Part shown: positions 15,554 through 56,905 of the stretch, one piece after another
Position numbering within the stretch: position 1 is the first letter of the stretch
How the letters are laid out: each line of letters opens with the position of its first letter
From: Phycisphaeraceae bacterium
GTDB taxonomy: Bacteria > Planctomycetota > Phycisphaerae > Phycisphaerales > UBA1924
NCBI GenBank assembly: GCA_039794205.1
Contig: JBDIVU010000001.1
Span: 223,794 to 287,793, forward strand
DNA: 64,000 nucleotides
Direction of reading: 5' to 3'
Notes under the pieces: model-generated
What the model saw: the letters and a program-made list of their open reading frames with translations, nothing else
What the model was told of the DNA's origin: nothing
Database searches by the model: none
Made by a program: the position numbers and the translations under genes

Positions 15554-15600
15554 GGGGTCTGGTTCGCGCGATCGCGTTCGGTCGGCGCCGGCGGTGAGAA

Positions 15601-20516: not shown

Positions 20517-20579
20517 GCCTGGGAGCGTACCCGACCGGCGACGCCGCGACACGGGCGCCGCGACGAGTAGGATGCAGCG

Positions 20580-29600: not shown

Positions 29601-30884
29601 TTGGGCATGAGCCTGAAGATGTCGATCGGGTTTGCGTCGCGGGCGGTTGTGGTTGCGGCATTGAGCGCGGGAGTGTGCGGCGGTGTCGCGAACGCGCAGC
29701 CTTGCTCGCCGGGGTGGGACGAGGCGTTCGATCCCGCGCCGGTCGGGGCGGTGCTGGCCCTGCACGCGGAGGATGGGACGCCGACGCCCGGGCTTTATGT
29801 CGGCGGGACGTTCACGTCGATCGCGGGCGCGGATCTCGCGCGGCTTGTGATATATGACGGAAATATATTTGCGCTCGCCGGCGCCAGCCCGGACAACACC
29901 GTGCATGTTATATCCCCGGCGGGCGCCGGCGTCCTCGTCGCGGGCCGATTCGGTTTCATCGGAGAGACGCCCTCGCCGCGGGTCTCGCGCTGGACGGGGT
30001 CGGAATGGTTCCCGCCCGCGACAGGCCCGAACGGCGACGTTCTCGCGGCCGTCGGCGCCGGGGGCGCGGGGGGGTATTACGTCGCGGGGAGTTTCAACGC
30101 CGCGGGCGCGATCTCAGCCGCGGGCGTGGCGTTGCACGACGGTGAAACATGGTCGGCCCTCGGAACGGGGCTGCAAGGCGGGCAGCGCGCGGGGTCAGCG
30201 CTGGCGCGACTCGGCGGGCTGCTCTTCGTAGGCGGGTCGTTCCTCGGCGCTGGTGGGATCCCGTCGCCCAACGTCGCGGTCTGGAACGGGTCGGGGTGGG
30301 CCGCCGCTGGCGCGGGGCTGAACGGGATAGTGCGAACTTTCGAGATATTCAACGGCGAACTGATCGCCGGGGGCGACTTCACCGCGAGCGGGGCGCAAGC
30401 AATATTTCATCTGGCGCGATGGACCGGCGTCGGCTGGGAGCCGTTCGCGGGCGGCGCGAACGGCGCCGTGCGGACGCTGCGCACGATCGCGCTGCGATCG
30501 GGCGATGCGCTCGTCGCGGGCGGGGCGTTCACACAGATCGGCGGCGTCGCGGCGGATCGGGTCGCGATCTACGACGGCGCGGAGTGGGCGCCGCTGGACG
30601 CCGGCTCGCCCGCGGTGGTCAACGCCGCGGCGATCTTCGAGGATCAACTTTACATCGGGTCGGCAGCGACCACGCCGACCGGATCCCCGGCGTCAGCGCT
30701 GCGGCGGTGGAGGCTCTGCGACTCCGGCGTCGCGGGCGATATCAACGGCGACGGCGTGGTCAACGGGACGGATCTCCTGCTGCTGCTCAATCAGTTCGGC
30801 GGGCCCGGCAATGCTGACCTCAACGGCGACGGCGTGGTCAACGGTACGGACCTGCTCCTGCTGCTCAACGCCTTCGGGACGTGA
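29601..30884 (+). CDS. Secreted Gly-rich beta-propeller-like repeat protein with two C-terminal dockerin-like (Ca-binding) repeats
   Basis: Signal peptide, repeated VxGG/FxxxG blades, and a C-terminal pair DINGDGVVNGTDLLLLLNQFG / DLNGDGVVNGTDLLLLLNAFG. Confidence 0.62.
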   Translation: MGMSLKMSIGFASRAVVVAALSAGVCGGVANAQPCSPGWDEAFDPAPVGAVLALHAEDGTPTPGLYVGGTFTSIAGADLARLVIYDGNIFALAGASPDNTVHVISPAGAGVLVAGRFGFIGETPSPRVSRWTGSEWFPPATGPNGDVLAAVGAGGAGGYYVAGSFNAAGAISAAGVALHDGETWSALGTGLQGGQRAGSALARLGGLLFVGGSFLGAGGIPSPNVAVWNGSGWAAAGAGLNGIVRTFEIFNGELIAGGDFTASGAQAIFHLARWTGVGWEPFAGGANGAVRTLRTIALRSGDALVAGGAFTQIGGVAADRVAIYDGAEWAPLDAGSPAVVNAAAIFEDQLYIGSAATTPTGSPASALRRWRLCDSGVAGDINGDGVVNGTDLLLLLNQFGGPGNADLNGDGVVNGTDLLLLLNAFGT

Positions 30885-32782: not shown

Positions 32783-32814
32783 TCCGGGGATCGAGCGAGG
32801 GTTCACGCAACTGC

Positions 32815-32955
32815 GCCGGCGCACGGGCGGGACGCCCGTGCCACTGGGCTGTTCGCGCACGGGCGGGACGCCCGTGCCACTGGGCTGTTCGCGCACGGGC
32901 GGGACGCCCGTGCCACTGGGCTGTTCGCGCACGGGCGAGACGCCCGTGCCGCTGT
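32815..32955. repeat. Four tandem 39-bp units GGGCTGTTCGCGCACGGGCGGGACGCCCGTGCCACTG
   Basis: Direct reading. Confidence 0.85.
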
Positions 32956-33208
32956 TGCTTACTCCGTCATCCCCGTGGGGCAGGCGTCCCTGCCTGCCCG
33001 GGGACAGCATCAATAAATAACACTCAACAAGGCGGGCACGGAGGCCCGCCCCACGGGGTTTGGGCGGGTGCGACGGCCCGCCTTACGGTTGATCTTGCGG
33101 GCGCGGAGGCATGCACGCACGATGGTTGCGTGACCGTTTTCCCCTTGGGAGTGGGGTGTGGGGATGGGGAATTACGTTGGTGTGCGTGAATCGCGCTTTC
33201 AGCGCTGC

Positions 33209-33235
33209 GAGGCCCAGGGATAAATCCCTGGGCTT
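33209..33235. terminator. Type-1 palindrome AGGCCCAGGGATaaATCCCTGGGCTTT fused to the next hairpin array
   Basis: Its 3' arm continues directly into the first 39-bp unit. Confidence 0.4.
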
Positions 33236-33336
33236 TCGCGCACGGGCGGGACGCCCGTGCCACTGGGGCTTTCGCGCACGGGCGGGACGCCCGTGCCACT
33301 GGGGCTTTCGCGCACGGGCGGGACGCCCGTGCCACT
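33233..33336. repeat. Three tandem 39-bp units TTCGCGCACGGGCGGGACGCCCGTGCCACTGGGGCT
   Basis: Direct reading. Confidence 0.85.
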
Positions 33337-33588
33337 GCATAATTGCGGGTTCGGGCCGATAGTAGATGAGTCTGGAGCGAGAATTCGGGCAGGATGGGTG
33401 AACCCGAGCGTCCCCGCGGTCGATCTATCGACGGAGAACATGGTTCGAGTCGGCGGGAGCCGCCGAGGGGTGAGTATGCATTGACAGCGCGCGGGCGGGT
33501 GATACCGTGCGGCGCTGCGAAGGGTGAAGCACCCGTGGGGGCGTCCGGGCGGGCGGGGGCACGCCGACACGCGAGCGAGGAGTCAGCC

Positions 33589-35160
33589 GTGCAGGCAGGA
33601 ATAAGCGGTGGACAACGACGGGCGGGCGCTCTGGTCCGTGTCTCGGGCGCGTCGATCGGATTGGCGCTGGTCGCCGGTACGATGGGGGGCTGCCGGAACG
33701 ATCTGAACTCGTTCTTTGATCCGAGCGTCGTCGGGCGATGGGAGTACACGCCGACGGTCGTCCCGATCCTCGAACGGCTGGACGTGATAGAGGACGATTC
33801 GGGCGATTTCGTTGAAACGTCCGAGGTCATGCCCGAGGATCTGATCCCGGAGCCCGCGGCGTACGAGATCGGCGCGGGCGATCAGGTGCGGATCATCATC
33901 TTCGACTTCCTGGTGGCGAACCAGCCGTCGGAGTTCATCCGCATCGTGGACCCGCGGGGGATGCTGGACCTGCCTCAGATCGGCGAACTGCCGGTGCGGG
34001 GGCTGACAGCCAAGCAGATCGAGTCGATGATCGTCCGGTTGCTGCGCGAGCAGGGGATCATTCAGGACGCGCTCGTGACGGCGGAGTCGCTGTCCCGGCA
34101 GGACGCCACGTTCACGGTGTACGGGTCGATCGCGCGAGTCGGGCGTTACGGGATCCCGAAGCCGAACTATCGGCTTCTCGATGCGCTGACGGACGCCGGG
34201 GGGACGGGCGTCCCCGTGCCTAGCATTTTCGTGATCCGGCAGGCGCCGTTGACTTCTGAGGTCTCGTCGGGTCTGGCGCCGATCCGGACGCCCGAGCCGA
34301 CCGAGCCGAGGCGTGACGACGGGGCCAATCTTGAGGATCTGATCGACCGTCTGACCGAGCCGCCGAAAGGCGCCGAGCCGCCGTCACCCGGGGTTTTCGG
34401 CTCGGGTTCCGGTTCTGCGCTGGGCCTGACGCGCCAGCCGACGGAGCCGGGTCAGCCCGATCGCCCGCCGATCGACCTGCCCGCGGACAGGCCCGCGGCT
34501 CAGCCCGATCCCGGCGAGCCGCCGGCGGGCCAGTGGGTGTTCATCGACGGGCGATGGGTCCGGGTGGCTGCGGGTGAGGCTGTGCAGGCGGGCGCCCCGG
34601 CGGGCGGGCTGGCGGAGGGGCCTGATCCTCTATCCGCCGCCGGCGCCGACGCGAGTGATCTTGTCACGCAGCGGGTGATCGAGATCCCGCTCCGTCCGTT
34701 GCTTCAGGGCAACGCCGCATACAACATCGTGATCCGTCCGGGTGATGCGATCCGAGTCCCGCCTCCGGATCAGGGTCTGGTTTATATGTCCGGGCCTGGT
34801 ATAGCCCGGCCGGGCGTGTTCAACCTCCCGGTGTTCGGCAGGCTGACTCTTACCAAGGCCGTCGCCGCTGCTGGCGGGCTGTCCCCGATCGGGATCCCCA
34901 ACCGGACGGACCTGACCCGGATGATCGGCGACGACCGCCAGGCGACGATCCGGCTCAACCTTCGGGCGATCTACGAAGGCTCCGAGCCGGACGTCTTTCT
35001 CAAGCCCGACGACGTGGTCAACGTGGGTACGACCTGGTGGGCCCAGCCGTTGGCCATCATCCGCAACGGCTTCCGGGTGAACTACGGGTTCGGGTTCCTG
35101 CTCGACCGCAACTTCGGCAACGACGTGTTCGGCGCCCCGCCGACGAACTTCAGGAACTGA
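33589..35160 (+). CDS. Polysaccharide export protein, Wza/OPX family (PES + SLBB domains); lipoprotein
   Basis: Lipobox LVAGTMGGC, Poly_export-like segment YEIGAGDQVRIIIFD, and SLBB-like segments (VYGSIARVGRYGI; YNIVIRPGDAIRVP). The GTG at 33589 with an upstream GAGGAG is the proposed start; the true start is uncertain. Confidence 0.65.
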   Translation: MQAGISGGQRRAGALVRVSGASIGLALVAGTMGGCRNDLNSFFDPSVVGRWEYTPTVVPILERLDVIEDDSGDFVETSEVMPEDLIPEPAAYEIGAGDQVRIIIFDFLVANQPSEFIRIVDPRGMLDLPQIGELPVRGLTAKQIESMIVRLLREQGIIQDALVTAESLSRQDATFTVYGSIARVGRYGIPKPNYRLLDALTDAGGTGVPVPSIFVIRQAPLTSEVSSGLAPIRTPEPTEPRRDDGANLEDLIDRLTEPPKGAEPPSPGVFGSGSGSALGLTRQPTEPGQPDRPPIDLPADRPAAQPDPGEPPAGQWVFIDGRWVRVAAGEAVQAGAPAGGLAEGPDPLSAAGADASDLVTQRVIEIPLRPLLQGNAAYNIVIRPGDAIRVPPPDQGLVYMSGPGIARPGVFNLPVFGRLTLTKAVAAAGGLSPIGIPNRTDLTRMIGDDRQATIRLNLRAIYEGSEPDVFLKPDDVVNVGTTWWAQPLAIIRNGFRVNYGFGFLLDRNFGNDVFGAPPTNFRN

Positions 35161-35396
35161 GCCGGGATCAGCCCGGCGTAGGGCGTGAATCGGCCCGAGT
35201 CGGCCCGAACCGTCGCGGCGCGCCGGGCGTAGCATCCCCGCTCGCCCGGAAGGCGGCGGACGACGCGAGGTGGGCGTCGTCGCGGGCGGGTCATCATGGT
35301 GGAATCATCCGGTGCGTCCCGTCGGAGCCGACGCGACTCCCGGATCATGGGCGCTGGGGGGCAGAACCCGGCGTACGGGTGGAGGACTGATTCGGT

Positions 35397-36323
35397 ATGA
35401 GCGTCGCGGGGGTGAACCCGTCACGTCAGGTTGACGCCGCCGCCGACCCGCCGCCGTGGTGGGCGACGCCGGGCTTCATCGCGGGCGCCGCGATCATCAC
35501 CGCCGCCCTGGTGTTCTTCTTTCGGCACTGGCTCTACGCGCAACATCAGAAGAGTTGGGGCAACGACGACTGGGCCCACGCCTACATCGTCCCGGTCATC
35601 TCCGGGTACGCGGCGTGGCGTGTCCGCGACCAACTACGCGCGCTCAGGCCGGAGGTCTTCGCGCCCGGGCTGGCGCCGCTGGCCCTCGGCGTCGTCTGTT
35701 ATATCTTCTTTACGCTCGGGTTCCCGACCCACATGGGCCGCGGCTTCTCGATCGTGCTCACTATCTTCGGGCTGGCGCTGCTGAACCTCGGCCCGAAGAT
35801 CACCGCTCTCCTCGCCTTCCCGATCGCGTACCTCGCCTTCGCCGTGACGCTGTCGAACTACATGATCCGGGGCGTTCTTTTCGAACTCCAACTGATCGCC
35901 TCGCAGGGCGCGTGGATACTGCTGAACATGGTCGGGATTCAGACGGATGTCAGCGGGAACACCCTCACCATCATGCCCCGGCTCGGGGAGCCGATCCCTC
36001 TCGATGTCGCCGAGGCTTGCAGCGGGATGCGCATGGTGATCGCGTTCGTGGCGCTCGGCGCCGCGGTCGCGTTCATCTCCACGCCGCGCTGGTGGCAGCG
36101 GATCGCGCTGCTGACTATCGCCGCCCCGGTGGCGATCTTCGTGAACATCCTCCGCGTCGCGTCGCTCGGGGCGCTGAGCCTCTGGGATCCGGAGTTCGCC
36201 AAGGGCAACGCGCACATGATGGTCGGGGTGGCGTGGCTGATCCCGGCGTTCTTGCTCTTCATGGGCTGCGCGTGGGCGCTCCTCCGCGCGGGCGGGAACG
36301 ATCGCGAGGAGGCGCCGGCGTGA
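35397..36323 (+). CDS. Exosortase (EpsH/Xrt family)
   Basis: Eight TM segments, catalytic-Cys motif AEACSGMRM, Arg motif NILRVASLGA, and a conserved His region (KGNAHMMVG). Confidence 0.72.
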   Translation: MSVAGVNPSRQVDAAADPPPWWATPGFIAGAAIITAALVFFFRHWLYAQHQKSWGNDDWAHAYIVPVISGYAAWRVRDQLRALRPEVFAPGLAPLALGVVCYIFFTLGFPTHMGRGFSIVLTIFGLALLNLGPKITALLAFPIAYLAFAVTLSNYMIRGVLFELQLIASQGAWILLNMVGIQTDVSGNTLTIMPRLGEPIPLDVAEACSGMRMVIAFVALGAAVAFISTPRWWQRIALLTIAAPVAIFVNILRVASLGALSLWDPEFAKGNAHMMVGVAWLIPAFLLFMGCAWALLRAGGNDREEAPA

Positions 36324-37180
36324 GCACGCAGCGTTCCCGATTAATCACAGCGGTCGCGTCCGCGATGCTGCTCGCCGCGGGCGCAGCGGGCCTCGACGCC
36401 GCGATCGCGCTGACGGACGCAGTGATCACCAAGGTCGCCATCCACCCCCCGGGCGGGCTTCGCTACCACACCATCCCCGTCCGGTCGGAGACCTGGGAGC
36501 GTTTCGGCGCCGACCCGCCGCCGCTGTCCGCCGAGATCATCGAGAACCTCGGGACCGAAAACTATATTTCCAGATATTATATCAAGTCGTCCACCCGCCA
36601 GGACCCCCGCCCGCGGATCTTCGAACTCCACTGCACCTACTTCACCGGCATGTCCGACACGGTCCCGCACGTCCCCGAGACCTGCTTCGTCGGCGGGGGG
36701 ATGCGCATCGTCAACGAAGCCGTCATCGTCCCCGTCCCGATAGACATCGGCCGCTTCCCGCCCGATCCGACCCTCGAGGACTCGGAGTTCGATCCCGCGG
36801 TCTTCGGCGTGATCCGTCGCGGCCGGACCGGCCCGGACTCCGACACCCCCGGCGTGCGCGTGCGGATGCCGTTCGGCTTGGATCGGCTCCGGCTGAGAGT
36901 GACGGAGTTCGAGTCGCCCGACGGCCGGCGCACATTCGCGGGGTACTTCTTCCTTGCCAACGGCTGGGCGGTGGATTCGGCGCTGGGCGTCCGCCTGCGC
37001 GCCTTCGACCTCAAAGCCAGGCACGCCTACTACTCGAAAGTTCAGTTCACCAGTTCGCTCGTAGACTCGGCGGAGGAGCTCGCCGAGATCGCCGCGGACT
37101 TCCTCAACGAGATGCTCCCCGAGATCATGCGCCGCGTCCCGGACTGGACCGAGGTCGCCGCCGGACGATACCCCGAATGA
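36320..37180 (+). CDS. Candidate exosortase-associated EpsI-like periplasmic protein (assignment tentative)
   Basis: GTG start overlapping the exosortase stop. Signal peptide (LITAVASAMLLAAGAAGLDA). Adjacency to exosortase is the usual EpsI arrangement, but no diagnostic motif was recognised. Confidence 0.4.
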   Translation: MSTQRSRLITAVASAMLLAAGAAGLDAAIALTDAVITKVAIHPPGGLRYHTIPVRSETWERFGADPPPLSAEIIENLGTENYISRYYIKSSTRQDPRPRIFELHCTYFTGMSDTVPHVPETCFVGGGMRIVNEAVIVPVPIDIGRFPPDPTLEDSEFDPAVFGVIRRGRTGPDSDTPGVRVRMPFGLDRLRLRVTEFESPDGRRTFAGYFFLANGWAVDSALGVRLRAFDLKARHAYYSKVQFTSSLVDSAEELAEIAADFLNEMLPEIMRRVPDWTEVAAGRYPE

Positions 37181-37230
37181 CGCCAACCACGCGGACGCGC
37201 GCCCGCGCCCGCGCCAAGGAATGACCGCCC

Positions 37231-40200
37231 ATGCCTGCAAATAAAATCAACATCAGGTTTGTCGCGACCCTGGGCGCCGTGCTCGTCGTGCTGTTCGCGG
37301 GCGTGGCTTTCGTGGCGTACCAGCGTCTGTCGACCTCGGGAGCGGAGTACGAGGCCCGCGGCGACGCGCTCATGGCGCAGGGGATGCCCCGCGAGGCCGC
37401 GGGCATGTACCGCCGGGCCGTCCGCCACGACCGCACAAACGTAGCCTGGCTGACGAAGTGGCGCGAGGCGCTGCTCCAGATCGTCCCCGCGACGGCCGTC
37501 GAATACAGCCAATATTACACAGATTTTTACCGCGGATCGCTGGGCATGCTCGCCGCGCTCCAGGAGCGGAACCCGGACGCGCAGCGTGACTACATCGGGA
37601 CGATATACGACGAGCTGCGGTTCTCAGGCGCCGCGCCCGAAGCGTGGGTTCAGTTCGCGGACATCGTCGCGTCGGCGCTCAACCGCCTGCCCGCGGACGA
37701 CCCGAAGACTCAGTCCCTGCACCGCTACCGCGCCCTGGCGAACCTGGCGCGCGGGCGCACGATCGATCTCAACGACGACGAGGTCCGGAAGATCCGCGAG
37801 GATCTCGAGACCGCCATCGCCGGTGATCCGACCGACATCGAAGCCGCGGCGTCACTGGTGATCTGGCATTCCGAGGTCTGGCGCAGGGCCGTGCGCGCAC
37901 GGCGCGCCGAGACCGCGGCGCGGGCCTGGCAGGACACGCTCGCGGCACTCGAATCGCAGAAGGAAAAATTCCCGGGCGAGCCTATGCTCGCCCTCGTCGA
38001 GATCCAGCTCACCGCCCAGAACATCCTCTCGAACACCCAGACGGTGCGAGATCGGCTCGCGGCATTATCCAACGTCGATCAGATCGACGCGCCGCTTATC
38101 GATGCGCTCGCCGACCGCGACCCCGCGACGCTCGACCCATCGCTCCTCGACCGCGCCTACGCGACTCTCCAGCAGATGCGCGCCCCGTCGGCAGCGGCGC
38201 GAAGGCTGCTGCCGATCCTCGACGCGGTCGCCCAGTCGCAGACCGCCCGGCCGCACCTGATGATCCTCCGCGCGGACATGCTCGCAGCGGTCGGGCGACA
38301 CCGCGAGGCGATCGAACAATTAGATCAGTTGCTCGCGCTCCCGGACCTGCCCGTGAGCCTCGAAGGGCTGATGCTCATGCAGGTCTACCGCGCCGAGGCG
38401 ATCTACCGCCAGGGCGAGGCGTTCCTGTCGCTATATAACAACACGGAAGACGCCGCGGAGAGGCAGACTCTCCTCGCAAGCGCGCACGAAGCCCGCGGGC
38501 GTCTCGTGCAGCGCGTGTCGGGCGGCGAAACAGCCCCGAACGTCATGCTTCTCGATGCGAGGCTCGCGCTCGCTGAAGGACGCCCGCGCATCGCCGCGGA
38601 GCGCCTCGCCGCGCTCGACGAGCAGCGCGAAGGCCGGGATCAACGCGTGATCCGCCTGCTCGGGACGGCCCTGGCCCAGAGCAACCTGCTCGGCGCCTCC
38701 CGCGAACAGTTCCTGCGGATCATCGAGGACAACCCGCTCGACATCGACGCGCTCTTCCGTCTCGGCGACATCGAGCGATCGCTGCGCGAACTCAAGTCCG
38801 CCGAGTCGCGGTACGAGCAGATCCTGACCGTCCTGCCGGACTCCGCCGACGCCCGGCTGCGCCTCAGCGCCATCCGCGCCGAGCAAGGCGTCGTCACCGT
38901 GCTCGACCGCACAGCCGTCGATCCCGTCTCCGCGGCGCTGATCCGCTGGCGCACGCTCATGAACTTCGAAACGCCCGCGATCGACGACGCGCTCAAAACG
39001 CTGACCGACGCGCGGGCCGCCCTGGGCGACGACCCCCGGCTTCTCAACGGCCTGATCCTCCACCACGCGCAGGTCGGTAATATCGACGCCGCCCGCGCCC
39101 AACTCGACGAGGCAGAACAGCTCTTCCCCGACGACGACCGCTTCGGGCACTGGCGTGCGCGCCTGTCGCTGGCCGATTCGCGTTCTTCTCTCGACGACGT
39201 GCTCGCGGCGATCGACGAGAGCGAGTCGCGCCCGCTCGAACGGCTCCTGACCAAGCACGACGTCTGCGTCGCCAACGGCGCGCCCGACCGCGCGTCCGAC
39301 TATCTCCGCGAGGCGGCGGCGCTCGCGCCCGCCGACCCGCGCGTGCTCGACCGCCGATTCTCCCGGGCGATCGTGGACAACGACATGGACACGGCCCGCG
39401 CGGTCGTCGCCGAGGCCGCCCGCGCCAACGCCGACAGCGTCGGCGGCGCGCTCTACCAGGGACGACTGGAGTTCTCTCTCAACGAGATCGAAAAAGCGCA
39501 CACAACATTAACTCAGGTCGTCGACCGCATCCCCTTCGATTCCGCGGCCTGGCGCCTGCTCGGGCAGACGCGGCTGCGGCTCGGACGGGTCGGGGAGGCG
39601 CTCGATGCCTTCGAACGCGCCTTCACCACCAAGCCCGACGACGCCAACATCGCCCGGCTATACGCGCAGACGCTCGCGCAACTCCAGCGCGGCGGCGATG
39701 CGCTCGAAGTCGCGCGCCGGGCCCGCAGGCTCACGCCCGGCAACCCCGAACTCAACGACCTCTGGCTGGCGCTCGAGGAATCCTTCGGCGACGCCGGCCT
39801 CGCCGCCCGCGAACGCGGCGAGCGCTTCGCCGCGGCGCCCGACGATTTCGCCAACACGCTCGCGCTGGCGCGCATCCACATCAGCGCCGAGCGCTGGGCC
39901 GAGGCCCGCAAGGTGCTCGACTCAGCCCGCGCCGCCCGCCCGCGTCATCCCGCCGCGGCGAGGCTCGACGCGGAATGGCACGCGCGTCAAGGCGACATCG
40001 AGGCCGGGGCTGGCGTTCTCCGCGGGATCGCCGATGAGCAGGCGCCCGCCGGGAATCATCTCGCGGTCGCGCAGTATTATCTCGAACATAATTTGACCCC
40101 CGACGCCCGCCGGGAACTCGAAGCGGCCCGCTCGAAGCAACCCGCGGGCGAGAAGAACGCCGAGATCATGCTCGCCGACCTTCACTTCGCCGCGGGCGAG

Positions 40201-41790
40201 TACGAGCAGGCGCTCCCGCTCTTTCGCGAGGCTCTCTCCGCAGCGACGGGCGCGCGCGCGGGCGACATCTCGCGGCGCATGGCCGAGGGCCTGCTCCGCC
40301 TTGAACGATACGAGGAAGCGACCCGGGCGCTTTCCGGCCTTGACGAGGCGCAGCGGCGCGACCCGAGGACGTTCGTCCTCCTCGCGCGTGCCGCGGCAGG
40401 ATCCAACAACGCCCGCGCCGCAGCCAGGCTTCTAGACGACGGCATCCAGGCGAACCCGACAAGCGCGATGCTCTTCGTCGAACGCGCGTCGCAGTCCATG
40501 CAACGTCCCGAGCAGTTGAACGACGCGCTCGCCGACGCGACGCAGGCGATCCGCCTGGCGCCCGGGATGCCCGAGGCGCGCAGGCTCCGCGTGGCGATCC
40601 TGGCGCGGCTGGGCAGAATGGCAGACGCGATCGCCGAGACCGAGCAGGCGCTCGCCGTGCTGAGCAACGACCGCGATCTCTGGCGCCAGCGGATCGAGTT
40701 GCTGATCGCGTCGGGCGATTCGCTGCGCGCCGCCGACGCCGCCGACAAAGCCGCCGAGCGTTTCCCGGCGGAGACGATCTGGCTCGTCACCGCGGGCGAC
40801 CTGCACGCGCAGTCTCAGCGCTGGAATCAGGCGGCGCCGCGATATCAGAAGGCTTACACAGTCGCACCGAACGTGCGGCTGGCGGTGCGGCTCGGGCAGA
40901 CGTTGCTCGAGATCGACCAGCCCCGGCCGCGCGAGGTGATCGCGCTCATGGACCGCTACATCGACGGCGACGACCTCCGCAGCACGACGCGGCTGCTAAA
41001 GTCCGCGGCCCACGCCGAGGCCGGCGAGCGCGACGCCGCGGTCAACGCCGCGATCGAATCGCTGGATGAAGCGCGCACGACCGCGGACCTGCGCGACTGG
41101 TTCCGCGGGATCGAGCCGGCGTTCCCCGAGCCGAGCGCCCGGCTCGAGTTCGTGCGTTCGAGGCCGGCGCCGGAGGGGCTTGGGTCGCTGCACACGTTCT
41201 TGGTTTCGCAGCTCTCGCTGGCCGCCGGCGCCGCGCACATCCCGACCATGGTCGCCGAACTCACCGCCGCCGAAGCCGGGACCACGGACCCGACGGTGCT
41301 GGTGGACATCGTCCGCCTGCTCGGGCAGATCCACTATTCGAGCGGGGACTACAACGCCGCGGCGTCGTTCTTCGAGAAAGGAACCAAACTTAATCCCGAC
41401 GATGTCGAGTTCAACAACAACCTCGCTTACACCCTGGCGCGTCATCTCAACCAGCCCGCCAGAGCGCTCGCGCCGGCCGAGCAGGCGGCCCGGCTCGCGC
41501 CGTCGAGCGCGAGCATCCTGGACACGCTGGGGTGGGTCTACGCGCTGCTGGATCGGCTAGACGAGGCGTCGGCGACGCTGAACCGGGCCCTGAACAACGC
41601 CCGCACGGACGACGAGCGGGCGCCCGCGCACATCCACCTCGCGGAGACGATGCTACGCCGGCAGGACACTCTGGGCGCCGCACGCCACGCCGAGTCCGCC
41701 CAGCGGATCCTCGCCCGCAGCGCCGTCCTCCGCAACGAGTACGGCGAGGCCCTCGACCGCGTTATGAAGCAACTGGAATCGTCCGAATGA
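37231..41790 (+). CDS. Giant TPR-repeat protein (1519 aa), N-terminally membrane-anchored; PrsT-like in context
   Basis: SD AAGGAA plus ATG, one N-terminal TM helix, then more than 1400 aa of Ala/Leu/Arg-rich TPR-like helical repeats. Confidence 0.7.
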   Translation: MPANKINIRFVATLGAVLVVLFAGVAFVAYQRLSTSGAEYEARGDALMAQGMPREAAGMYRRAVRHDRTNVAWLTKWREALLQIVPATAVEYSQYYTDFYRGSLGMLAALQERNPDAQRDYIGTIYDELRFSGAAPEAWVQFADIVASALNRLPADDPKTQSLHRYRALANLARGRTIDLNDDEVRKIREDLETAIAGDPTDIEAAASLVIWHSEVWRRAVRARRAETAARAWQDTLAALESQKEKFPGEPMLALVEIQLTAQNILSNTQTVRDRLAALSNVDQIDAPLIDALADRDPATLDPSLLDRAYATLQQMRAPSAAARRLLPILDAVAQSQTARPHLMILRADMLAAVGRHREAIEQLDQLLALPDLPVSLEGLMLMQVYRAEAIYRQGEAFLSLYNNTEDAAERQTLLASAHEARGRLVQRVSGGETAPNVMLLDARLALAEGRPRIAAERLAALDEQREGRDQRVIRLLGTALAQSNLLGASREQFLRIIEDNPLDIDALFRLGDIERSLRELKSAESRYEQILTVLPDSADARLRLSAIRAEQGVVTVLDRTAVDPVSAALIRWRTLMNFETPAIDDALKTLTDARAALGDDPRLLNGLILHHAQVGNIDAARAQLDEAEQLFPDDDRFGHWRARLSLADSRSSLDDVLAAIDESESRPLERLLTKHDVCVANGAPDRASDYLREAAALAPADPRVLDRRFSRAIVDNDMDTARAVVAEAARANADSVGGALYQGRLEFSLNEIEKAHTTLTQVVDRIPFDSAAWRLLGQTRLRLGRVGEALDAFERAFTTKPDDANIARLYAQTLAQLQRGGDALEVARRARRLTPGNPELNDLWLALEESFGDAGLAARERGERFAAAPDDFANTLALARIHISAERWAEARKVLDSARAARPRHPAAARLDAEWHARQGDIEAGAGVLRGIADEQAPAGNHLAVAQYYLEHNLTPDARRELEAARSKQPAGEKNAEIMLADLHFAAGEYEQALPLFREALSAATGARAGDISRRMAEGLLRLERYEEATRALSGLDEAQRRDPRTFVLLARAAAGSNNARAAARLLDDGIQANPTSAMLFVERASQSMQRPEQLNDALADATQAIRLAPGMPEARRLRVAILARLGRMADAIAETEQALAVLSNDRDLWRQRIELLIASGDSLRAADAADKAAERFPAETIWLVTAGDLHAQSQRWNQAAPRYQKAYTVAPNVRLAVRLGQTLLEIDQPRPREVIALMDRYIDGDDLRSTTRLLKSAAHAEAGERDAAVNAAIESLDEARTTADLRDWFRGIEPAFPEPSARLEFVRSRPAPEGLGSLHTFLVSQLSLAAGAAHIPTMVAELTAAEAGTTDPTVLVDIVRLLGQIHYSSGDYNAAASFFEKGTKLNPDDVEFNNNLAYTLARHLNQPARALAPAEQAARLAPSSASILDTLGWVYALLDRLDEASATLNRALNNARTDDERAPAHIHLAETMLRRQDTLGAARHAESAQRILARSAVLRNEYGEALDRVMKQLESSE

Positions 41791-41896
41791 ACCCGGACAC
41801 GACCGGCCCGGGGTCGCCCCGAAGCACGTCCGAAAACCGTCCGGCGGGAGCGGACGTGAACACAGCGACCCCGCCCGGCGTGTGAGTAAGGAAGCC

Positions 41897-44185
41897 ATGC
41901 CGACACCCGGCCAGAATCAATTCGCACGCCCAGGCGGCCAGCAACGCCATGCCTCGGCGCCTGCTCCCGCCTCGGGCGGGCTCGGCGTCGCTCTCGACCC
42001 CATCAAACTCCTCCGGCAGTACGCCAAGTGGCTGGTCGCAGCGGGAATCGTCGGCGCGATCGTCGGCGTCGCTGCGCACTTCGGGCTTATGCGCGTATAT
42101 CCACTTTACCGCTCCGAGGTCACCTTCGAGATGACCTCCCCGATCACCGACGCCAGCGCGATCATCACAACTCTCGACCGCTCCGAAGCCGAGATCGAAC
42201 GTTTCATCGGCGGGCAGATCTTCCTCCTGCGCTCGGAGTCGCTGCTACTCGACGCCGTTCGCAACGACCCGAGCATCCGCAACGACACGCAGTGGTCCCG
42301 CGCCTATATCTCGCCCGACACCGGCGTCCACGACGAAAACGCGATGGTCAAGGATCTCACCGGGATAGTTCAGGCGTCCCCGATCCCGCGCTCGAACATC
42401 GTGATCCTGTCCGCGACGACGCACGTCCCGCAGGACGCCGCGACGATCGCCAAGGCAGTAAAGGACGCCTACCGAAGACAACTCAACCGCGACAAGCAGA
42501 CCGACTCGCAGGACATCCTCGCCGCCTTGTCCAGCCAGCTCCGCGGCGTGCAGGACGAACGCCGGCTCGTCGAGGAGCGCATGGACAAACTCCTCGTCGA
42601 CAACCAGGTCACGAACCTCGAAGAACGGCTCATGATGCAGTCCGAGGAGTTCGCCTCGCTCCAGCCCCGGGTTATAGAAACCAGGCAATCTCTGGAGATA
42701 TCGAAGGATCTCCTCAAGTCCTACGAGGAGCAGCTCGCGGCGCCCGGCGGCGCGACCTACCCCGAGTCCGTGCGAACCGCCGTCCGCGAGCACTTCATCG
42801 TACGCAACTTCGAGTCACAGGAAGCCAACCTCGAAGCGGCCCTGCGCAACGCTCGAACCCGGCTCGGCGAGCGCAACCTCCAGACTCAGCAGATCGTCAA
42901 CTCCATCGCCGCGGTGCGCGAGTCCAAGCGCCTCGCCGAGGAGCGTTTGCTACAGGAGAAGTTCCTCGAACTGATCGAGATGACGCGCTCGACGATCCGC
43001 TCGCTCGAAGCGTCGCTGGTCGAGATGCAGACCTCGATCGAGCAGGCCCGGGCGCGCCTGGCCGACCTCAAGCGCGTCTCCGAGGACTACTCGAAACTCA
43101 AGTCCGACCAGGCGCGCCTCGCCGAGACCGAAGCCAGGCTCCAACTCGACATCGAGTCGCAGCGCGCCATCCGCGCCCGCGAGGCGTCCAGCCGGGTCCG
43201 CGTGCGCTACAACGAGGAAGTCCCCACCGAGCCGATCTTCCCGAAGATCCAGTTCATCGCGCCGGCGGGGGTCGTGCTCACGCTCGGGCTGGTCAGCGGG
43301 CTGATCCTGCTGCGCGAACTTCTCGAACAGCGTGTCCGCTCGCCGCAGGACGTGGCCCTGATCCCCAGGGCCCGCGTCATCGGCGTGGTCCCGGACCTGG
43401 ACGAAGACCCGTCGCGACCCGCCTCGCCCGAACTGGCCGTGCACGATCGGCCCACCGGCGTCATCGCGGAGTCCGTGCGCCAGATCCGCACTGCCGTCCT
43501 CAAAGAATTCACCCAGCGCGGGCACAAGGCGCTGCTGGTCGTAGGCGGCGCGCCCGGCTCCGGCGCGAGCACTCTCATAACAAACCTCGCGCACTCGCTC
43601 GCCGCGACCGACCACCGCGTCCTCGTGATCGACGGCAACTTCCGCCGGCCCACAATGCACAAGCACTTCGGGGTGGCCGAGGCGCCCGGGCTTGGCGAGG
43701 CGCTCACCGGCGCCGCGACACTCGCCGACGCCGCACAGCCGACCGACGACACGCACATCGACGTCGTACCCGCGGGCGCGCCGGGCAGCCGAATCTTCGA
43801 ACGCCTCACAACCAGCGGCATGAGCCGGCTCCTCGACGAAGCCCGCGCGCGCTACGACATCGTCCTCGTCGATTCGCCACCCGCGATCGTAGCGGGCGAC
43901 GCGATGGCGCTCGCCAACCGCTGCGACGCCGCGCTGCTCGTCATCCGCGCCTACAGCGAAAAACGCGGCCTGGTCGCGCGTGTCCGCGATCAACTCGACG
44001 AATCCCGCGCGGAGTTCCTGGGCGTGGTCGTAAACGCCGTCCGCTCGAGCGCCGGCGGGTACTTCAAACGTAACTATCGTACGGCCCACACCTACCAGAA
44101 CGGCCTGGCCGAGGAACTCGAAGCCGCCCGGCTCGCTCGCGCCCGCACCGCAGCCGAACCGATCGAACCCGCCGAGTCGCGCTGA
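41897..44185 (+). CDS. Polysaccharide co-polymerase (Wzz domain) fused to a BY-kinase/MinD-like P-loop ATPase (Wzc/EpsG-like)
   Basis: Two TM helices flanking a periplasmic coiled-coil, then a C-terminal Walker A (VVGGAPGSGAST), A' (VLVIDGNFRRP) and B (DIVLVDSPP). SD AAGGAAG before the ATG at 41897. Confidence 0.78.
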   Translation: MPTPGQNQFARPGGQQRHASAPAPASGGLGVALDPIKLLRQYAKWLVAAGIVGAIVGVAAHFGLMRVYPLYRSEVTFEMTSPITDASAIITTLDRSEAEIERFIGGQIFLLRSESLLLDAVRNDPSIRNDTQWSRAYISPDTGVHDENAMVKDLTGIVQASPIPRSNIVILSATTHVPQDAATIAKAVKDAYRRQLNRDKQTDSQDILAALSSQLRGVQDERRLVEERMDKLLVDNQVTNLEERLMMQSEEFASLQPRVIETRQSLEISKDLLKSYEEQLAAPGGATYPESVRTAVREHFIVRNFESQEANLEAALRNARTRLGERNLQTQQIVNSIAAVRESKRLAEERLLQEKFLELIEMTRSTIRSLEASLVEMQTSIEQARARLADLKRVSEDYSKLKSDQARLAETEARLQLDIESQRAIRAREASSRVRVRYNEEVPTEPIFPKIQFIAPAGVVLTLGLVSGLILLRELLEQRVRSPQDVALIPRARVIGVVPDLDEDPSRPASPELAVHDRPTGVIAESVRQIRTAVLKEFTQRGHKALLVVGGAPGSGASTLITNLAHSLAATDHRVLVIDGNFRRPTMHKHFGVAEAPGLGEALTGAATLADAAQPTDDTHIDVVPAGAPGSRIFERLTTSGMSRLLDEARARYDIVLVDSPPAIVAGDAMALANRCDAALLVIRAYSEKRGLVARVRDQLDESRAEFLGVVVNAVRSSAGGYFKRNYRTAHTYQNGLAEELEAARLARARTAAEPIEPAESR

Positions 44186-44212
44186 CCCCGCATCGCCAGA
44201 ATCAAGAATCCG

Positions 44213-45595
44213 ATGAACCGCGACTCGCTCATCTTCGACACCGACGCGCTGAGCGGGCTATCTCTCCGCGCGCCGGGATCCGACGCGCTCCCCGTCGAAC
44301 CTATGTCGGCGATGTCCGTCTTCAACGGCTATCTCGGCGTGTTCATCGTCGCCTTCCTCGTCACCCTTCTCGCGACCCCGATCCTCCGCCGACTCGCCCT
44401 CGCGCACGGCGTGATCGACCAGCCCGACTTCGATCGCAAGGAACACCGCCTGCCCGTCGCGTACCTCGGCGGGGTAGCCGTGTTCCTCGGCCTGCTCGCC
44501 GCCGTCGCGTTCGGGATGATCGCGCGAAGCCCCCTCATCGAGGACCACCCCTCAGTCGTCTATCAGCGGCCGGTCCCGATCTCCATCCTCTTCGGCATGA
44601 TGGTCATAATGTTCGTCGGGCTTCTCGACGACCTCGTGGGGATCCCCCCGCGCGCCAAGATCGCCGGGCAACTCTTCGCGGCAGCGGCTCTCGCGATGGA
44701 AGACGTCGGCGTCCGCGTCGCCGCCGGCCTGCTCACCCCGCTCGGACGCGCTATCGGGCACGAGTCGATGGTCTTCACCTTCCCGCTGCCCGTCGTCGGG
44801 ATGGACGCGCGCATCGACCTCGTCTACTGGACCGGCACCGCGATCATCGCAATCTTCATCCTCGGCGCCTGCAACGCCAGCAACCTCCTCGACGGACTCG
44901 ACGGCCTGGTCACCGGCGTCACCGGCATCGCCGTCGGCGCCATGCTCGTCCTCGCGCTCGGACTCGCCGTCATCAGCGACGGACCGCTCGACGCCACGCG
45001 CGTGATCCTCTCTCTCGCAGTCCTGGGCGCCTGTCTAGGGTTCCTCCCGCACAACTTCAGACCCGCGACGATCTTCCTCGGCGACTGCGGGTCGATGCTG
45101 CTCGGCTACTGCGCCGTCGTCATCATCCTCTCGCTCGGGGACACCGGCCGCACGCCCCTCGTCGTCGCGGGGCTGATCGCGTACGCAGTCCCGATCATCG
45201 ACACCACGCTGTCGATCGTCCGCCGGAAGATGTCCGGCAAGTCCATGAGCGAACCCGACCGCGAGCACATCCACCACCTGCTGCGCCGATCGCTGGGCGT
45301 GACACGCGCGGTCCTCGCGCTCTACGCGCTCGGCGCCGTCTTCGGCGCACTGGCGATCTTCGTGACGCTCGGCCGCGCTCGGCTCGCGTACACCATCGCG
45401 CTCGTGCTCGCGGCGTTCATCGGTGTGACAGCCGTGAAAATCGCCCGGCTCAAGGCGTTCGAGGAAGAAGCCCGCGCGATCGCGGAGGGTCGCCCGCTCA
45501 CCGTTCGCCGCCGTCGGCGCCCGGCCGCGATCCCTCAGCCCGACGCCGACCTCCCCGGCGAACCCGCCGTCCGCCCCGAGCCGACCGGCGCCTGA
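44213..45595 (+). CDS. Polyprenol-phosphate N-acetylhexosamine-1-phosphate transferase (WecA/MraY family, GT4 class) - initiating glycosyltransferase
   Basis: DDLVGI, NASNLLDGLDGL, cytoplasmic-loop DREHIHH, and 10-11 TM helices. Confidence 0.78.
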   Translation: MNRDSLIFDTDALSGLSLRAPGSDALPVEPMSAMSVFNGYLGVFIVAFLVTLLATPILRRLALAHGVIDQPDFDRKEHRLPVAYLGGVAVFLGLLAAVAFGMIARSPLIEDHPSVVYQRPVPISILFGMMVIMFVGLLDDLVGIPPRAKIAGQLFAAAALAMEDVGVRVAAGLLTPLGRAIGHESMVFTFPLPVVGMDARIDLVYWTGTAIIAIFILGACNASNLLDGLDGLVTGVTGIAVGAMLVLALGLAVISDGPLDATRVILSLAVLGACLGFLPHNFRPATIFLGDCGSMLLGYCAVVIILSLGDTGRTPLVVAGLIAYAVPIIDTTLSIVRRKMSGKSMSEPDREHIHHLLRRSLGVTRAVLALYALGAVFGALAIFVTLGRARLAYTIALVLAAFIGVTAVKIARLKAFEEEARAIAEGRPLTVRRRRRPAAIPQPDADLPGEPAVRPEPTGA

Positions 45596-45676
45596 CCTAC
45601 CATGCCCGCGAAACCGGTCGGCGTCATCGGTCCCGACGCCGAGCCTGATCGCACACCCGCCGCGTGGAGCAGCGCC

Positions 45677-46045
45677 ATGCCCGAACGTTACATCGACGAC
45701 TTCCGCCGACGCCGCGCCGACGGCCAGACGCGCCTCCTCAATACCGAACACCTCGGCATAAAACGTTTCCTTCGCCTCGACAGCGATTCTTACTCCGACC
45801 GATCCGCCGAGGGTCGGCTCGACGCGCGCACCAAGGAACTGCTCGGCCTGGTCGCGTCCGCAGTCCTCCGCTGCGACGACTGCATCGCCTACCACGTCGA
45901 GCAATCCGTCGCGCAGGGCTGGACAAAGGAAGAAATCGAAGACGCCCTGAACGTCGCGCTGGTCGTCGGCGGCTCGATCACGATCCCCCACCTCCGCCGA
46001 GCGCGCATCGCGCTGGACGAACTCCTCGAAGAACGCGATAGGTAG
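45677..46045 (+). CDS. Carboxymuconolactone decarboxylase / AhpD-like family protein
   Basis: CxxC-containing AhpD core LRCDDCIAYH and a four-helix pattern. ATG at 45677. Confidence 0.6.
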   Translation: MPERYIDDFRRRRADGQTRLLNTEHLGIKRFLRLDSDSYSDRSAEGRLDARTKELLGLVASAVLRCDDCIAYHVEQSVAQGWTKEEIEDALNVALVVGGSITIPHLRRARIALDELLEERDR

Positions 46046-46251: not shown

Positions 46252-48135
46252 TGATGAACCGAAGAATCGCCGCCGCCGCGGGTCTGGCGCTGTCATGCGC
46301 CGCAGCCCCCACGCACACGCTCAGTTCACGTACCGGACGGTTGCGCAGAGCGGGGTCGCGGGGTTTACAGACTTTGACATCGCGCTCATCGCGAACAACG
46401 GTCTGACCTCCATGAAAGCCACGCAAGGCTCCGAAGGCGTCTGGGCTGAAAACGGCGTGCCCGGCAATCTGCTGACTCTTGCCAAGGTCGGAGTCGACAG
46501 CAATTTCGGATGCCAGAGCGAACCCACGGAGGCAATTACAAGGCCCTCTATGAATTCGGCCGGTCTAGTGACACTCGCCGCAATGGAGGATGGGCTCATT
46601 TTCAGTGCAGGCGCATGCAGCAATGAGTGCGCATCATCAACTGCGGTACAAACATGGTCAGGAATTCTCCGCTGGAATCCTGGCAGCCCTGCTCCCTCTG
46701 TAGCGATGCAGGTCAGCGACTCGGTTCAACACGGCGGCGTGACAATCCCTTTCTATCCCGCGGGCTCTCCCGGGTTCTTCGATGGTTTCGTGCCGAGAAT
46801 CGGCAACAGCGGCAGTGTTACCGTGTACGACAAATTCTGTCTGAACGTGCCCGGAGCCCCCAGAGCGCCACGATCGTTAGCCCGCTGACCGGCGGCCTGG
46901 TAGTGCATGCGGCCACTGGCGAAACTGGCATTTTGGATTTACCCGCGACCATGTCCAATCCCTCCATCAACGGCGCGGCGTCGGCGAACACAGTCTTCTA
47001 CGCACGACAGGCTCTCGACACCGACATGGTCTCCAACGACCCCAACAACGTCGACTTCGGTATCTATTTTACATCGGCGGGTTCCGCCACCAGGGTCTTC
47101 GTCGAAGGCGATATCGCTCCGGTTCCCTTCGAGGAGGAGCCGATGGATCCGACGGACCCATTCCCGTTCCCGGATCCAGGCCCGGATTACCGCTTCTCAC
47201 AACTCGGCTTCCACCCCGCGATCAACGACGCCGGTCAGGTCGCGTTCTACGCCCGGATTGCAGAGCGCGTGCAGATCGGCTCTGACATCCAGTACATCAA
47301 CCCCAGCGGCGGGATCTGGTCCGGACTCGGCGCTAACTATGGCACGTACCGCCTGGTCGCCATGCACGGCGACCAAGCCCCCGGCCTGCCCGCCGGGGTG
47401 GTCTTCTCCGGCTTCGGCGACCCTGTCATCAACGCGACCGGCCAACTCGCCTTCGTCGCGTATCTCGCCGGGGCCGGCGTCAACGCTCTAAACGACTTCG
47501 CGGTCTATCGCGCGACCCCCGACGGCCAGGGCGGCTTCACCCTCGAGCTGATCGCCCGCGAAGGGTTCTCCGCGCCGGGCACAATCGGTTTTTATGCCGG
47601 CGATCTGCCCAACGGCAGCCCGTTCCGCGATCCCTTCATCAACGCCTCCGGCCAGGTCGCGTTCCAGGCGAACTGGCACTCCAATCCAGGTTCGTTCGGG
47701 TCCGGCGGCCCTGGAATCTGGCTGAATACACCAGGCGTCGGCAACGTCGCCGTGGCAGCGCGTAGATTGTTCGGAAAAGGGATCCAAACGATCTCGCTTG
47801 GTTCAGGGGAAGCGTCAGGCGCCGGGCAGTCTAAAGCCGCTTCTTCCGGTGGCCAGGACGGCCGCGGCACTGCTCTCAACGACAACGGGGAAGTGGTTTT
47901 CGTAGTTCGACTTCAAGCGATTCCGGAGCTCGACCGGCGCGTCGTCGTCGCCTCACACCCGTCGCCGATCATGCTCGCGACCGACTTCAACGCCGACGGC
48001 TTCACCGACTCGGGCGATCTGGCGCTCCTCTTCGAAGCCTTCGACACCCAGAACAGCCGCTACGACATCAACGCCGACGGCGTTATCGACATGCGCGACG
48101 TCAGCGTCGTCCTGAACGCGATGACTTCACGCTAA
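46252..48135 (+). pseudogene. Secreted repeat protein (x-G-Q-V-A-F repeats) with a C-terminal dockerin-like pair, disrupted by two frameshifts
   Basis: Signal peptide MMNRRIAAAAGLALSCAAAP is in frame 0 (46252). The body continues in frame 2 (to 46888) and then frame 1 (to 48135). Both frame switches coincide with CCCCC tracts (~46303 and ~46853). The C-terminus reads DFNADGFTDSGDLALLF..DINADGVIDMRDVSVVLN. Confidence 0.5.
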
Positions 48136-50180: not shown

Positions 50181-50282
50181 CGGCACAGGCGCAACAGCGG
50201 CACAGGCGCAACAGTGGCACGGGCGTCCCGCCCGTGCGCGAACAGCTCCAGTGGCACGGGCGTCCCGCCCGTGCATTAGCGG
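50181..50282. repeat. Hairpin-repeat array in reverse orientation (CAGTGGCACGGGCGTCCCGCCCGTGC x2, preceded by degenerate CGGCACAGGCGCAACAG units)
   Basis: Direct reading. Confidence 0.8.
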
Positions 50283-52074: not shown

Positions 52075-52101
52075 CTTTACGCGGGAGTTCGTTTGACGAT
52101 C

Positions 52102-52899: not shown

Positions 52900-53033
52900 G
52901 CGTCGATTGTCCCGGCGACGGCGTGAGTCGTCAAGAAGAAATTTGGAAATTTTTGGGGATGGCCCTTGACAGGGGGGGGGTATATTGGATCATAGGAACG
53001 TGCCACGCGGCAGCAACAGAAAGGAACCAGACG

Positions 53034-53339: not shown

Positions 53340-53340
53340 A

Positions 53341-56860: not shown

Positions 56861-56905
56861 ATGAGGCGATTCTGTCAGTTACGAATTCAGTGGCAGTCTT
56901 GAATA

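Follow-up and report, generated by a model that had tools for sequence, protein, structure and literature searches.

Gene content of the locus

There are six co-oriented genes at the locus described here, and they lie within a 64,000-nucleotide stretch of a Phycisphaeraceae bacterium genome (contig JBDIVU010000001.1), the whole of which is called the window below. They encode a Wza-like outer membrane polysaccharide export (OPX) lipoprotein, an exosortase, an EpsI-like protein, a giant tetratricopeptide repeat (TPR) protein, a Wzc-like polysaccharide co-polymerase (PCP) and a transferase of the MraY/WecA family (Table 1). Exosortases are located in exopolysaccharide (EPS) loci and process PEP-CTERM proteins (PMC1569441; PMC12188702). 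A preliminary description of this DNA had recognised a six-gene, exosortase-centred EPS locus, and this gene list holds, with family matches for each of the six products. The cassette is compact, comprising 6-7 genes with small intergenic gaps, and it is probably co-transcribed. A scan of the locus for promoters and terminators gave nothing informative.

Table 1. Coordinates of the cassette genes and of the adjoining features in the window
Feature	Positions	Strand	Description
Upstream intergenic region	32783-33588	.	806 bp; two tandem REP-like palindrome arrays
Wza-like OPX lipoprotein gene	33589-35160	+	523 aa; Poly_export + SLBB
Exosortase (EpsH family) gene	35397-36323	+	308 aa; PF09721
EpsI-like gene	36320-37180	+	286 aa; divergent EpsI family (by sequence similarity)
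Giant TPR protein gene	37231-41790	+	1519 aa; PrsT-like in middle part
Wzc-like PCP-2a gene	41897-44185	+	762 aa; TIGR01007, 2 transmembrane segments
MraY/WecA-family transferase gene	44213-45595	+	460 aa; PF00953, about 10 transmembrane segments
AhpD/CMD-family gene	45602-46045	+	147 aa; PF02627, TIGR00778

The G+C content of the window is about 68%, and therefore most of its long open reading frames (ORFs) are spurious. Coding frames were chosen by the G+C content of third codon positions (GC3) together with family searches, and all six cassette ORFs show GC3 values of the coding type (0.81-0.90). The ORF of the Wzc-like protein opens at 41882, and its likely start is 41897. The GTG start of the Wza-like gene at 33589 is also the start that was called independently for a Logan contig of identical sequence (locus L001). 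Hydrophobic and transmembrane (TM) segments were counted with a strict hydropathy threshold.

Conservation across the Phycisphaerales

With one genome taken per species, a pattern scan yielded 539 confirmed matches, and the best 80 loci were examined. Together with two copies of the window these make 82 loci, in which gene order was mapped by tblastn with the window proteins. Nearly all of the 80 related loci are labelled Phycisphaerales or Phycisphaeraceae. The order Wza, exosortase, EpsI, TPR protein, Wzc, (epimerase), WecA is kept in every one of them (80/80), as far as the contigs reach. Identity to the window proteins in these loci is 42-68% for the exosortase, 32-71% for the EpsI-like protein and 24-44% for the TPR protein. 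Of the 82 loci, 79 have a Wza ortholog upstream of the exosortase gene, 81 have a TPR ortholog of about 1500-1600 amino acids in the corresponding place, and 68 have a transferase ortholog (47-75% identity in the relatives).

In most loci a gene for an NAD-dependent sugar epimerase/dehydratase lies between the Wzc and WecA genes, as in L082 (18792-19892; a gap of ~1.1 kb). This gene is absent from the window and from its closest relatives, such as L003-L007, L009-L011 and L013. The cassette is real and order-wide in the Phycisphaerales, and the window copy is typical of the clade.

The exosortase and its EpsI-like partner

The 308-amino acid protein had been called an exosortase in the preliminary description, and it passes all three general family models. 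It scores 158.1 bits against PF09721 (gathering score 25.7; model positions 2-253 of 254), 124.8 against TIGR02602 (‘8TM_EpsH’; cut-off 105.55; model positions 2-234 of 241) and 59.3 against the exosortase/archaeosortase signature TIGR04178 (cut-off 23). When 19 sequences with 44-70% identity to the window protein are aligned, the residues Cys208, Arg253 and His273 do not vary. At least seven hydrophobic segments can be counted in the window protein, in line with a family whose members have about eight TM segments. Subtyping with hidden Markov models (HMMs), as had been proposed, reached no named subfamily cut-off. The scores are 138.1 against a cut-off of 425 for XrtW (NF038142), 131.2 against 400 for XrtD (TIGR04152), 126.9 against 208 for XrtA (TIGR03109) and 81 against 313 for XrtV. 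The protein is therefore a member of the exosortase/EpsH family that belongs to no named subfamily.

There are 416 relatives of this exosortase at E<=1e-10, and the named ones come from Phycisphaerales, Phycisphaeraceae or Planctomycetota metagenome-assembled genomes. The exact sequence is on record only in two Logan assemblies and one NCBI contig. No solved structure matching the exosortase was found by profile search.

The EpsI-like protein is anchored in the membrane by its N-terminus and has an alpha/beta domain on the periplasmic side. Its GTG start overlaps the stop codon of the exosortase gene by 4 bp, and the two genes are translationally coupled. They are adjacent in 82 of the 82 loci, and they are fused in P0157. 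The window protein scores 24.4 against PF11984 (DUF3485/EpsI), just below the gathering score of 26.1. Most of its orthologs carry PF11984, and several are labelled ‘exosortase-associated EpsI family protein’ by NCBI. Each of 40 orthologs compared with the XrtD model matches its EpsI part, and 11 of the 40 also match TIGR02914. Judged by these matches of its orthologs, the product of 36320-37180 is probably a divergent EpsI, in agreement with the similarity that had been proposed for it.

A probable pseudokinase in the Wzc-like protein

The Wzc-like protein scores 124.1 against the bacterial tyrosine kinase (BY-kinase) model TIGR01007 (cut-off 108.05) and 112.8 against TIGR01005 over residues 156-738. 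Its two TM segments (residues 46-64 and 454-472) flank a periplasmic domain, and a kinase-fold domain (residues ~520-735) is fused to the co-polymerase. The Walker A sequence of this domain is GAPGSGAST, wherein the position of the canonical Lys is occupied by Ala. Among 72 orthologs this position is A, G, S or T in every case and never Lys, and the Walker A' motif reads D-x-N in all 72, with the second Asp replaced by Asn. The Walker B Asp and the ExxRxxR motif are retained and are invariant in the same 72 sequences. The C-terminal tail includes three Tyr residues (GGYFKRNYRTAHTYQ), among which Y722 and Y733 are invariant in the 72 orthologs; this count is below that of typical Tyr clusters.

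Matches in the PDB include BceF, CapA1/CapB chimeras, VpsO, Wzc and Etk. In pairwise HMMER alignments to the structures of BceF and the CapA1/CapB chimera, Lys stands opposite the Ala of the window protein and Asp stands opposite its Asn. These replacements suggest that the kinase-fold domain is probably a fused BY pseudokinase, which may keep residual nucleotide binding. Annotation pipelines would name the protein an autokinase, and this name is probably wrong.

BY pseudokinases are already known, including EcpK, HfsB and fused variants (PMC12004946). The PCP-2/BY pseudokinases described there (EcpK/EpsV of Myxococcus, HfsB/HfsA of Caulobacter and the fused SMc01795) likewise have a conserved kinase fold without catalytic residues, and the domain is proposed to serve as a scaffold for the co-polymerase octamer. 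The Wzc-like domain differs from them in that it passes TIGR01007 and has retained the Walker B and ExxRxxR motifs as well as two invariant tyrosines in its C-terminal tail; its replacements are confined to the Walker A Lys and the second Walker A' Asp.

The exporter, the TPR protein and the transferase

The Wza-like protein matches PF02563 at 53 bits (cut-off 28) and the SLBB model PF10531 at 28.9 (cut-off 27), with a long Pro-rich linker separating the Poly_export and SLBB domains. A lipobox-like sequence, LVAGTMGGC, places TMGGC after a hydrophobic stretch. Against TIGR03027, the exporter model of the XrtA system, the protein reaches only 40 (cut-off 180).

The giant TPR protein is matched by many TPR models of Pfam, and its best family match is the PrsT model TIGR02917 at 183.5 (cut-off 312.2), with the best stretch at residues 851-1284. 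Its N-terminus forms a single hydrophobic anchor, and a lipobox Cys is absent. Its gene is ~4.7 kb throughout the related loci, and therefore a TPR protein of roughly 1500 amino acids is a trait of the clade. The size that had been described as unusual is thus correct as a length, but it is normal for these organisms.

The transferase scores 106.4 bits against PF00953 (cut-off 27) and 101.6 against the WecA equivalog TIGR02380, under the cut-off of 326. From its family membership it is a putative polyprenyl-phosphate N-acetylhexosamine-1-phosphate transferase and is presumed to be the initiating enzyme. An AhpD/CMD-family gene starts 6 bp past the transferase gene, and its product scores 58.8 against PF02627 and 40.1 against TIGR00778. 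An AhpD/CMD gene follows the WecA-like gene in 12 of the 82 loci, including L001, which is a copy of the window. This gene is possibly co-transcribed with the cassette; the family is not known to have a role in exosortase systems.

A candidate PAP-CTERM sorting signal

There is no PEP-CTERM-like tail, with a hydrophobic segment followed by basic residues, among the stop-to-stop ORFs of at least 60 amino acids in the window. Three scans agree on this point (a hydropathy and basic-tail scan, a P-x-P regular expression and a custom PAP-tail HMM), and the preliminary description had likewise seen no PEP-CTERM substrate in the window.

A scan of the related loci (about 1.5 Mb in total) for C-terminal hydrophobic and basic tails gave a different picture. 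Six proteins (from loci L013, L022, L037, L051, L064 and L071) end in [VI]PAP[GST], about 15-18 hydrophobic residues and RRRR. A seventh PAP tail, from L063, has a short extension past the basic residues. Thus, seven of the 80 related loci encode a PAP-tailed protein within 10 kb. The tail of an additional protein, from L048, reads VPTTG, and no tail that reads PEP was found in the same 1.5 Mb. A Sec-type signal peptide is present in five of six PAP-tailed proteins checked and in the VPTTG-tailed protein. For the PAP protein of L064, the N-terminus picked by the scan is unlike a signal peptide.

In two loci the PAP-CTERM gene is located between the Wza and exosortase genes (8474-9358 in L071 and 4024-4760 in L063), and both tails read VPAP[TS]. 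In L064 it is divergently adjacent to the Wza gene. A remnant of such a gene was sought in the 236-bp gap between the Wza and exosortase genes of the window, and none was found. A consistent placement of this family within the cassette was also considered and rejected, as three further members lie elsewhere in scattered contexts; physical linkage between PAP-CTERM genes and the cassette is therefore only occasional. PEP-CTERM genes are typically scattered as well (PMC1569441).

There are 17 detectable homologs of the L071 protein. The close ones end in VPAPG, VPAPS, VPSPA or VPGPG, and distant ones end in VPEP or IPEP, including one that carries PF07589. Because the distant homologs have these endings, the PAP tail can be regarded as homologous to PEP-CTERM, with the Glu replaced. 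The existing models mostly miss it. TIGR02595 gives 16.5, 15.7, 15.3 and 10.9 on four of the six PAP tails and nothing on the other two (cut-off 16), and PF07589 gives at most 16.9 (cut-off 20.7). No better-fitting sorting-signal model is present in NCBIfam release 20, and the VPLPA-CTERM model has no match to the PAP tails at E<=1. The co-occurrence of these tails with the cassette in related genomes suggests that the PAP tail is likely the cognate signal of the exosortase. The preliminary description had left both the substrate and the polymer open; the relatives now provide a candidate for the former, [VI]PAP[GST]-CTERM.

Dockerin-tailed neighbours and other features of the window

Two neighbours of the cassette carry dockerin tails. 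The gene at 29601-30884 (+), which is 2.7 kb upstream of the cassette, encodes a Rax2-like beta-propeller protein with a GC-type dockerin tail (NF041540, 30.8 bits at residues 380-425 against a cut-off of 29; Pfam Dockerin_1, 42.7). Homologs of this protein are encoded on the opposite strand 4-8 kb upstream of the cassette in L004, L045, L055, L078 and L080. The gene at 46627-48135 (+) encodes a choice-of-anchor protein with NxxGxxAF repeats (DUF7453; TIGR05002, 125 bits against 50), and it also ends in a Dockerin_1 tail. The stretch from 46 to 48 kb around this gene has a G+C content of 0.63, below that of the rest of the window.

The NxxGxxAF family was surveyed through its 150 best representatives from all lineages, and at least 65 of these have a C-terminal PxP-type tail that includes a hydrophobic and basic stretch. 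In total, 62 of the 150 tails are canonical PEP and none is PAP, and many more members show a PxP-type tail plus an extension. The dockerin-like class of the family contains 18 sequences, of which several are misclassified and roughly ten are true dockerins. The closest homolog of the window protein (72% identity) has a true dockerin tail. On the evidence of its tail, the window protein is a dockerin-anchored version of a family that usually consists of exosortase substrates, which is an anchor swap of a catalogued kind.

Dockerin tails were also considered as exosortase signals in their own right, and this was rejected, since they have neither a TM nor a basic segment and match NF041540 and TIGR05002. 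Both proteins pass these curated models of the GC-type dockerin and NxxGxxAF systems, which are separate from the exosortase system and represent an alternative anchor. Three dockerin tails had been proposed for the window. The third, in the product of 57122-58693 (-), is instead a calcium-binding repeat resembling thrombospondin type 3. This gene encodes a 523-amino acid FG-GAP-repeat protein with weak codon bias (GC3 0.50), and it is located in one of two islands of lower G+C content (52000-54000 and 56000-60000; 0.59 compared with about 0.68). The island with the FG-GAP-repeat gene may have been acquired horizontally.

The intergenic region upstream of the cassette includes two tandem arrays of 36-bp units (32819-32954 and 33230-33337). 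They are built from a palindrome, GCACGGGCGGGACGCCCGTGCCAC, that resembles repetitive extragenic palindromic (REP) elements and forms a perfect 9-bp stem (GCACGGGCG / CGCCCGTGC) with a GGA loop. There are 26 copies of this 24-nucleotide palindrome in the window when up to 3 mismatches are allowed, and 0 are expected by chance. The copies are intergenic and span positions 2438-50274 (for example 18695-18835, 32821-32952, 33240-33335 and 50214-50274), often in tandem arrays with periods of 34-39 bp. They are mostly on the plus strand before about 33 kb and on the minus strand after 48 kb. The hairpin block of ~800 bp that had been noted ahead of the locus is therefore present, but it is a dispersed REP-like repeat. 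Given the 26 intergenic copies across the window, its role as a regulatory element specific to the locus is rejected.

The remaining genes of the window are housekeeping or unrelated, and include those for TatC, GatB, a P-type ATPase, an aldehyde dehydrogenase, phosphofructokinase, GH57, an ABC exporter and several peptidases. Also unrelated to the locus are a Ser/Thr protein kinase fused to TPR repeats (8308-10977 (+); 889 amino acids) and a C-5 cytosine DNA methylase (19305-20828 (-)). An Rfam scan of the window reported only a tRNA-Leu, which is far from the locus. This tRNA (anticodon TAG; 15601-15684 (-)) is located inside a listed ORF of 608 amino acids (13910-15736 (-)), and therefore the N-terminal part of that ORF is not coding.

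Comparison with known exosortase systems

Exosortase systems are known almost wholly from bioinformatics and from a few proteobacterial and cyanobacterial mutants. The architecture of the cassette parallels that of the XrtA/PEP-CTERM/EpsH system of Proteobacteria (Haft et al. 2006, PMC1569441), which likewise has an exosortase with Cys, Arg and His, an adjacent or fused EpsI and a large TPR protein (PrsT). The XrtA locus further includes an OPX exporter and chain-length/kinase proteins, and the XrtA substrates resemble the PAP-CTERM proteins in that a signal peptide is combined with a short motif, which precedes a TM helix and basic residues. The preliminary description had matched the gene content and order of the present locus to such EpsH loci. 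The parallel in architecture is sound, but the cassette is not the XrtA system, since it fails every equivalog cut-off of that system.

There are further differences. The tails in the relatives read [VI]PAP[GST] rather than PEP, and a single protein without the Walker A lysine unites the chain-length and kinase parts. The cassette has an initiator of the WecA/MraY type and a membrane-anchored TPR protein of 1519 amino acids, in comparison with the 899 positions of the PrsT model. In addition, it consists of only 6-7 genes, without glycosyltransferases, Wzx or Wzy, and neither PrsK nor PrsR was identified in the window.

The highest-scoring subtype models for the cassette exosortase are those for XrtW and XrtD (the VPLPA-CTERM system), at 138 and 131 bits. 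In those systems EpsI is fused to the exosortase (models of 486-494 amino acids), whereas in the cassette it is encoded by a separate gene, except in the fusion P0157. An exosortase/PEP-CTERM system from the same phylum is represented by the EpsH protein RB2461 of Rhodopirellula baltica (PMC1569441). That organism is listed without EpsI and without PrsT, whereas the Phycisphaerales cassette has EpsI-like and PrsT-like genes, and the tails found near Phycisphaerales cassettes are PAP instead of PEP.

Proposed function and alternative explanations

The region likely represents the form that a polysaccharide export module coupled to an exosortase takes in the Phycisphaerales. In such a module, the WecA/MraY-type transferase would prime a glycan on undecaprenyl phosphate, as its family membership suggests, and further glycosyltransferases, a flippase and a polymerase would be supplied from outside the 64 kb. 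By homology, the Wzc-like co-polymerase with its two TM segments and the Wza-like lipoprotein would move the polymer across the envelope. The kinase-fold domain, which has lost the Walker A lysine and one Walker A' aspartate, would probably serve as a scaffold ring that is independent of phosphorylation.

The exosortase, its EpsI-like partner and the giant TPR scaffold would in turn recognise Sec-exported proteins that have a PEP-CTERM-type tail. In the Phycisphaerales, to judge by the co-occurrence described above, this tail would consist of [VI]-P-A-P-[G/S/T], a hydrophobic helix and RRRR. If the enzyme acts like other exosortases and archaeosortases, its Cys/Arg/His site would cut the tail, and the cut protein would be released or would be attached to the surface or matrix. 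The substrates of the window organism would be encoded outside the window, and the dockerin neighbours would use an independent anchor.

A more specific proposal is that these proteins form an unnamed, order-wide exosortase subfamily of the Phycisphaerales that has its own ‘PAP-CTERM’ signal, [VI]PAP[GST]-TM-RRRR, and is tied to a minimal export core. To this core would belong the OPX protein, a PCP-2a without kinase activity, an initiator of the WecA type, an EpsI encoded by its own gene and the TPR scaffold of 1500 amino acids. The chances that this proposal is correct seem to us about even.

Several observations weigh against the export module as outlined above. The 64-kb window encodes no protein with a PAP- or PEP-CTERM tail, and an in-cassette PAP-CTERM gene occurs in two loci only, L071 and L063, whose proteins are 73% identical. 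Three further members of the L071 family sit in unrelated, scattered contexts. The seven PAP tails per ~0.64 Mb of non-cassette flank may reflect the abundance of such tails throughout these genomes rather than linkage, and these genomes may also have a second exosortase elsewhere. Moreover, because no glycosyltransferase of another family, Wzx or Wzy is encoded in the window, the link to a polymer comes solely from the OPX/PCP/transferase trio. In the papers searched, exosortase and Phycisphaerae co-occur only in reference lists. A literature search that combined PEP-CTERM, Planctomycetes and dockerin likewise found nothing.

One might ask whether the genes belong together at all. A genome of about 68% G+C content yields many long spurious ORFs, and no terminator or promoter signal delimits an operon, so adjacent but unrelated genes or membrane proteins grouped by chance could be envisaged. 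However, the six ORFs have coding-type GC3 values and significant family matches, and the exosortase and EpsI genes overlap. The gene order, kept strictly across 80 loci with sequence differences of 30-55%, refutes a chance grouping, and this explanation is extremely improbable.

It is also unlikely that the cassette is an ordinary, if divergent, XrtA/PEP-CTERM system acting on canonical PEP-CTERM proteins encoded elsewhere. The architecture is reminiscent of XrtA loci, the XrtA model aligns over positions 4-258 of 261, PrsT is the top match of the TPR protein, and the models for EpsE, the PEP-CTERM exporter and the XrtA-associated kinase are among the top matches. However, the scores given above for XrtA, PrsT and TIGR03027 are all under their cut-offs, as are those for TIGR03018 (108.8 against 230.65) and TIGR03007 (26 against 279), and XrtW and XrtD slightly outscore XrtA. 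The TPR protein has a membrane anchor instead of a lipoprotein signal and is far longer than the PrsT model. XrtA loci probably use a sugar transferase of the Bac_transf type, whereas the initiating enzyme here is of the MraY/WecA type, and the tails beside related cassettes read PAP and never PEP.

The dockerin neighbours raise another alternative, wherein the window genome has lost its exosortase substrates in favour of dockerin anchors and has kept the cassette for polysaccharide export or because its exosortase serves another purpose. This would account for the lack of a PEP or PAP tail in 64 kb and for the dockerin tail of the NxxGxxAF protein, a family in which PxP-type tails, most of them PEP, are so frequent. 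The GC-type dockerin protein upstream, with homologs upstream of the cassette in five related loci, would also be consistent with such a loss. However, the intact catalytic triad and EpsI partner, at 45-70% identity across the order, argue for a retained enzymatic role. In addition, 64 kb is a small sample for substrate genes that are scattered and monocistronic (PMC1569441). Dockerin tails have neither a TM nor a basic segment and cannot be exosortase substrates, and so they are silent on the loss of other substrates. We therefore regard substrate loss as improbable, and prefer the exosortase-coupled export module whose substrates would be encoded elsewhere in the genome.

Implications

Exosortases are a well-known class of proteins, and the most interesting element of the system described here, the PAP-CTERM signal, is seen in relatives only. 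Exosortase-bearing genomes that lack a detectable PEP-CTERM protein are a recognised puzzle in the Sphingomonadales (bioRxiv 10.64898/2025.12.21.693542). If our proposal is true, at least some of the genomes with an ‘exosortase without PEP-CTERM’ would represent a detection problem, given that the PEP-CTERM models mostly miss the PAP signal. The probable fused BY pseudokinase, conserved among the orthologs, bears on the question of co-polymerases that work without tyrosine phosphorylation.

In the Phycisphaerales, a whole order has its exosortase within a fixed module of six or seven genes, with a signal that has likely drifted from PEP to PAP. Such a near-universal and syntenic cassette would be a core envelope-assembly machine of the lineage rather than an accessory biofilm locus. 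The PAP tail provides a concrete, testable signal model for the surface proteins of the Phycisphaerales, and a reason to build clade-specific HMMs for both the exosortase and the tail.

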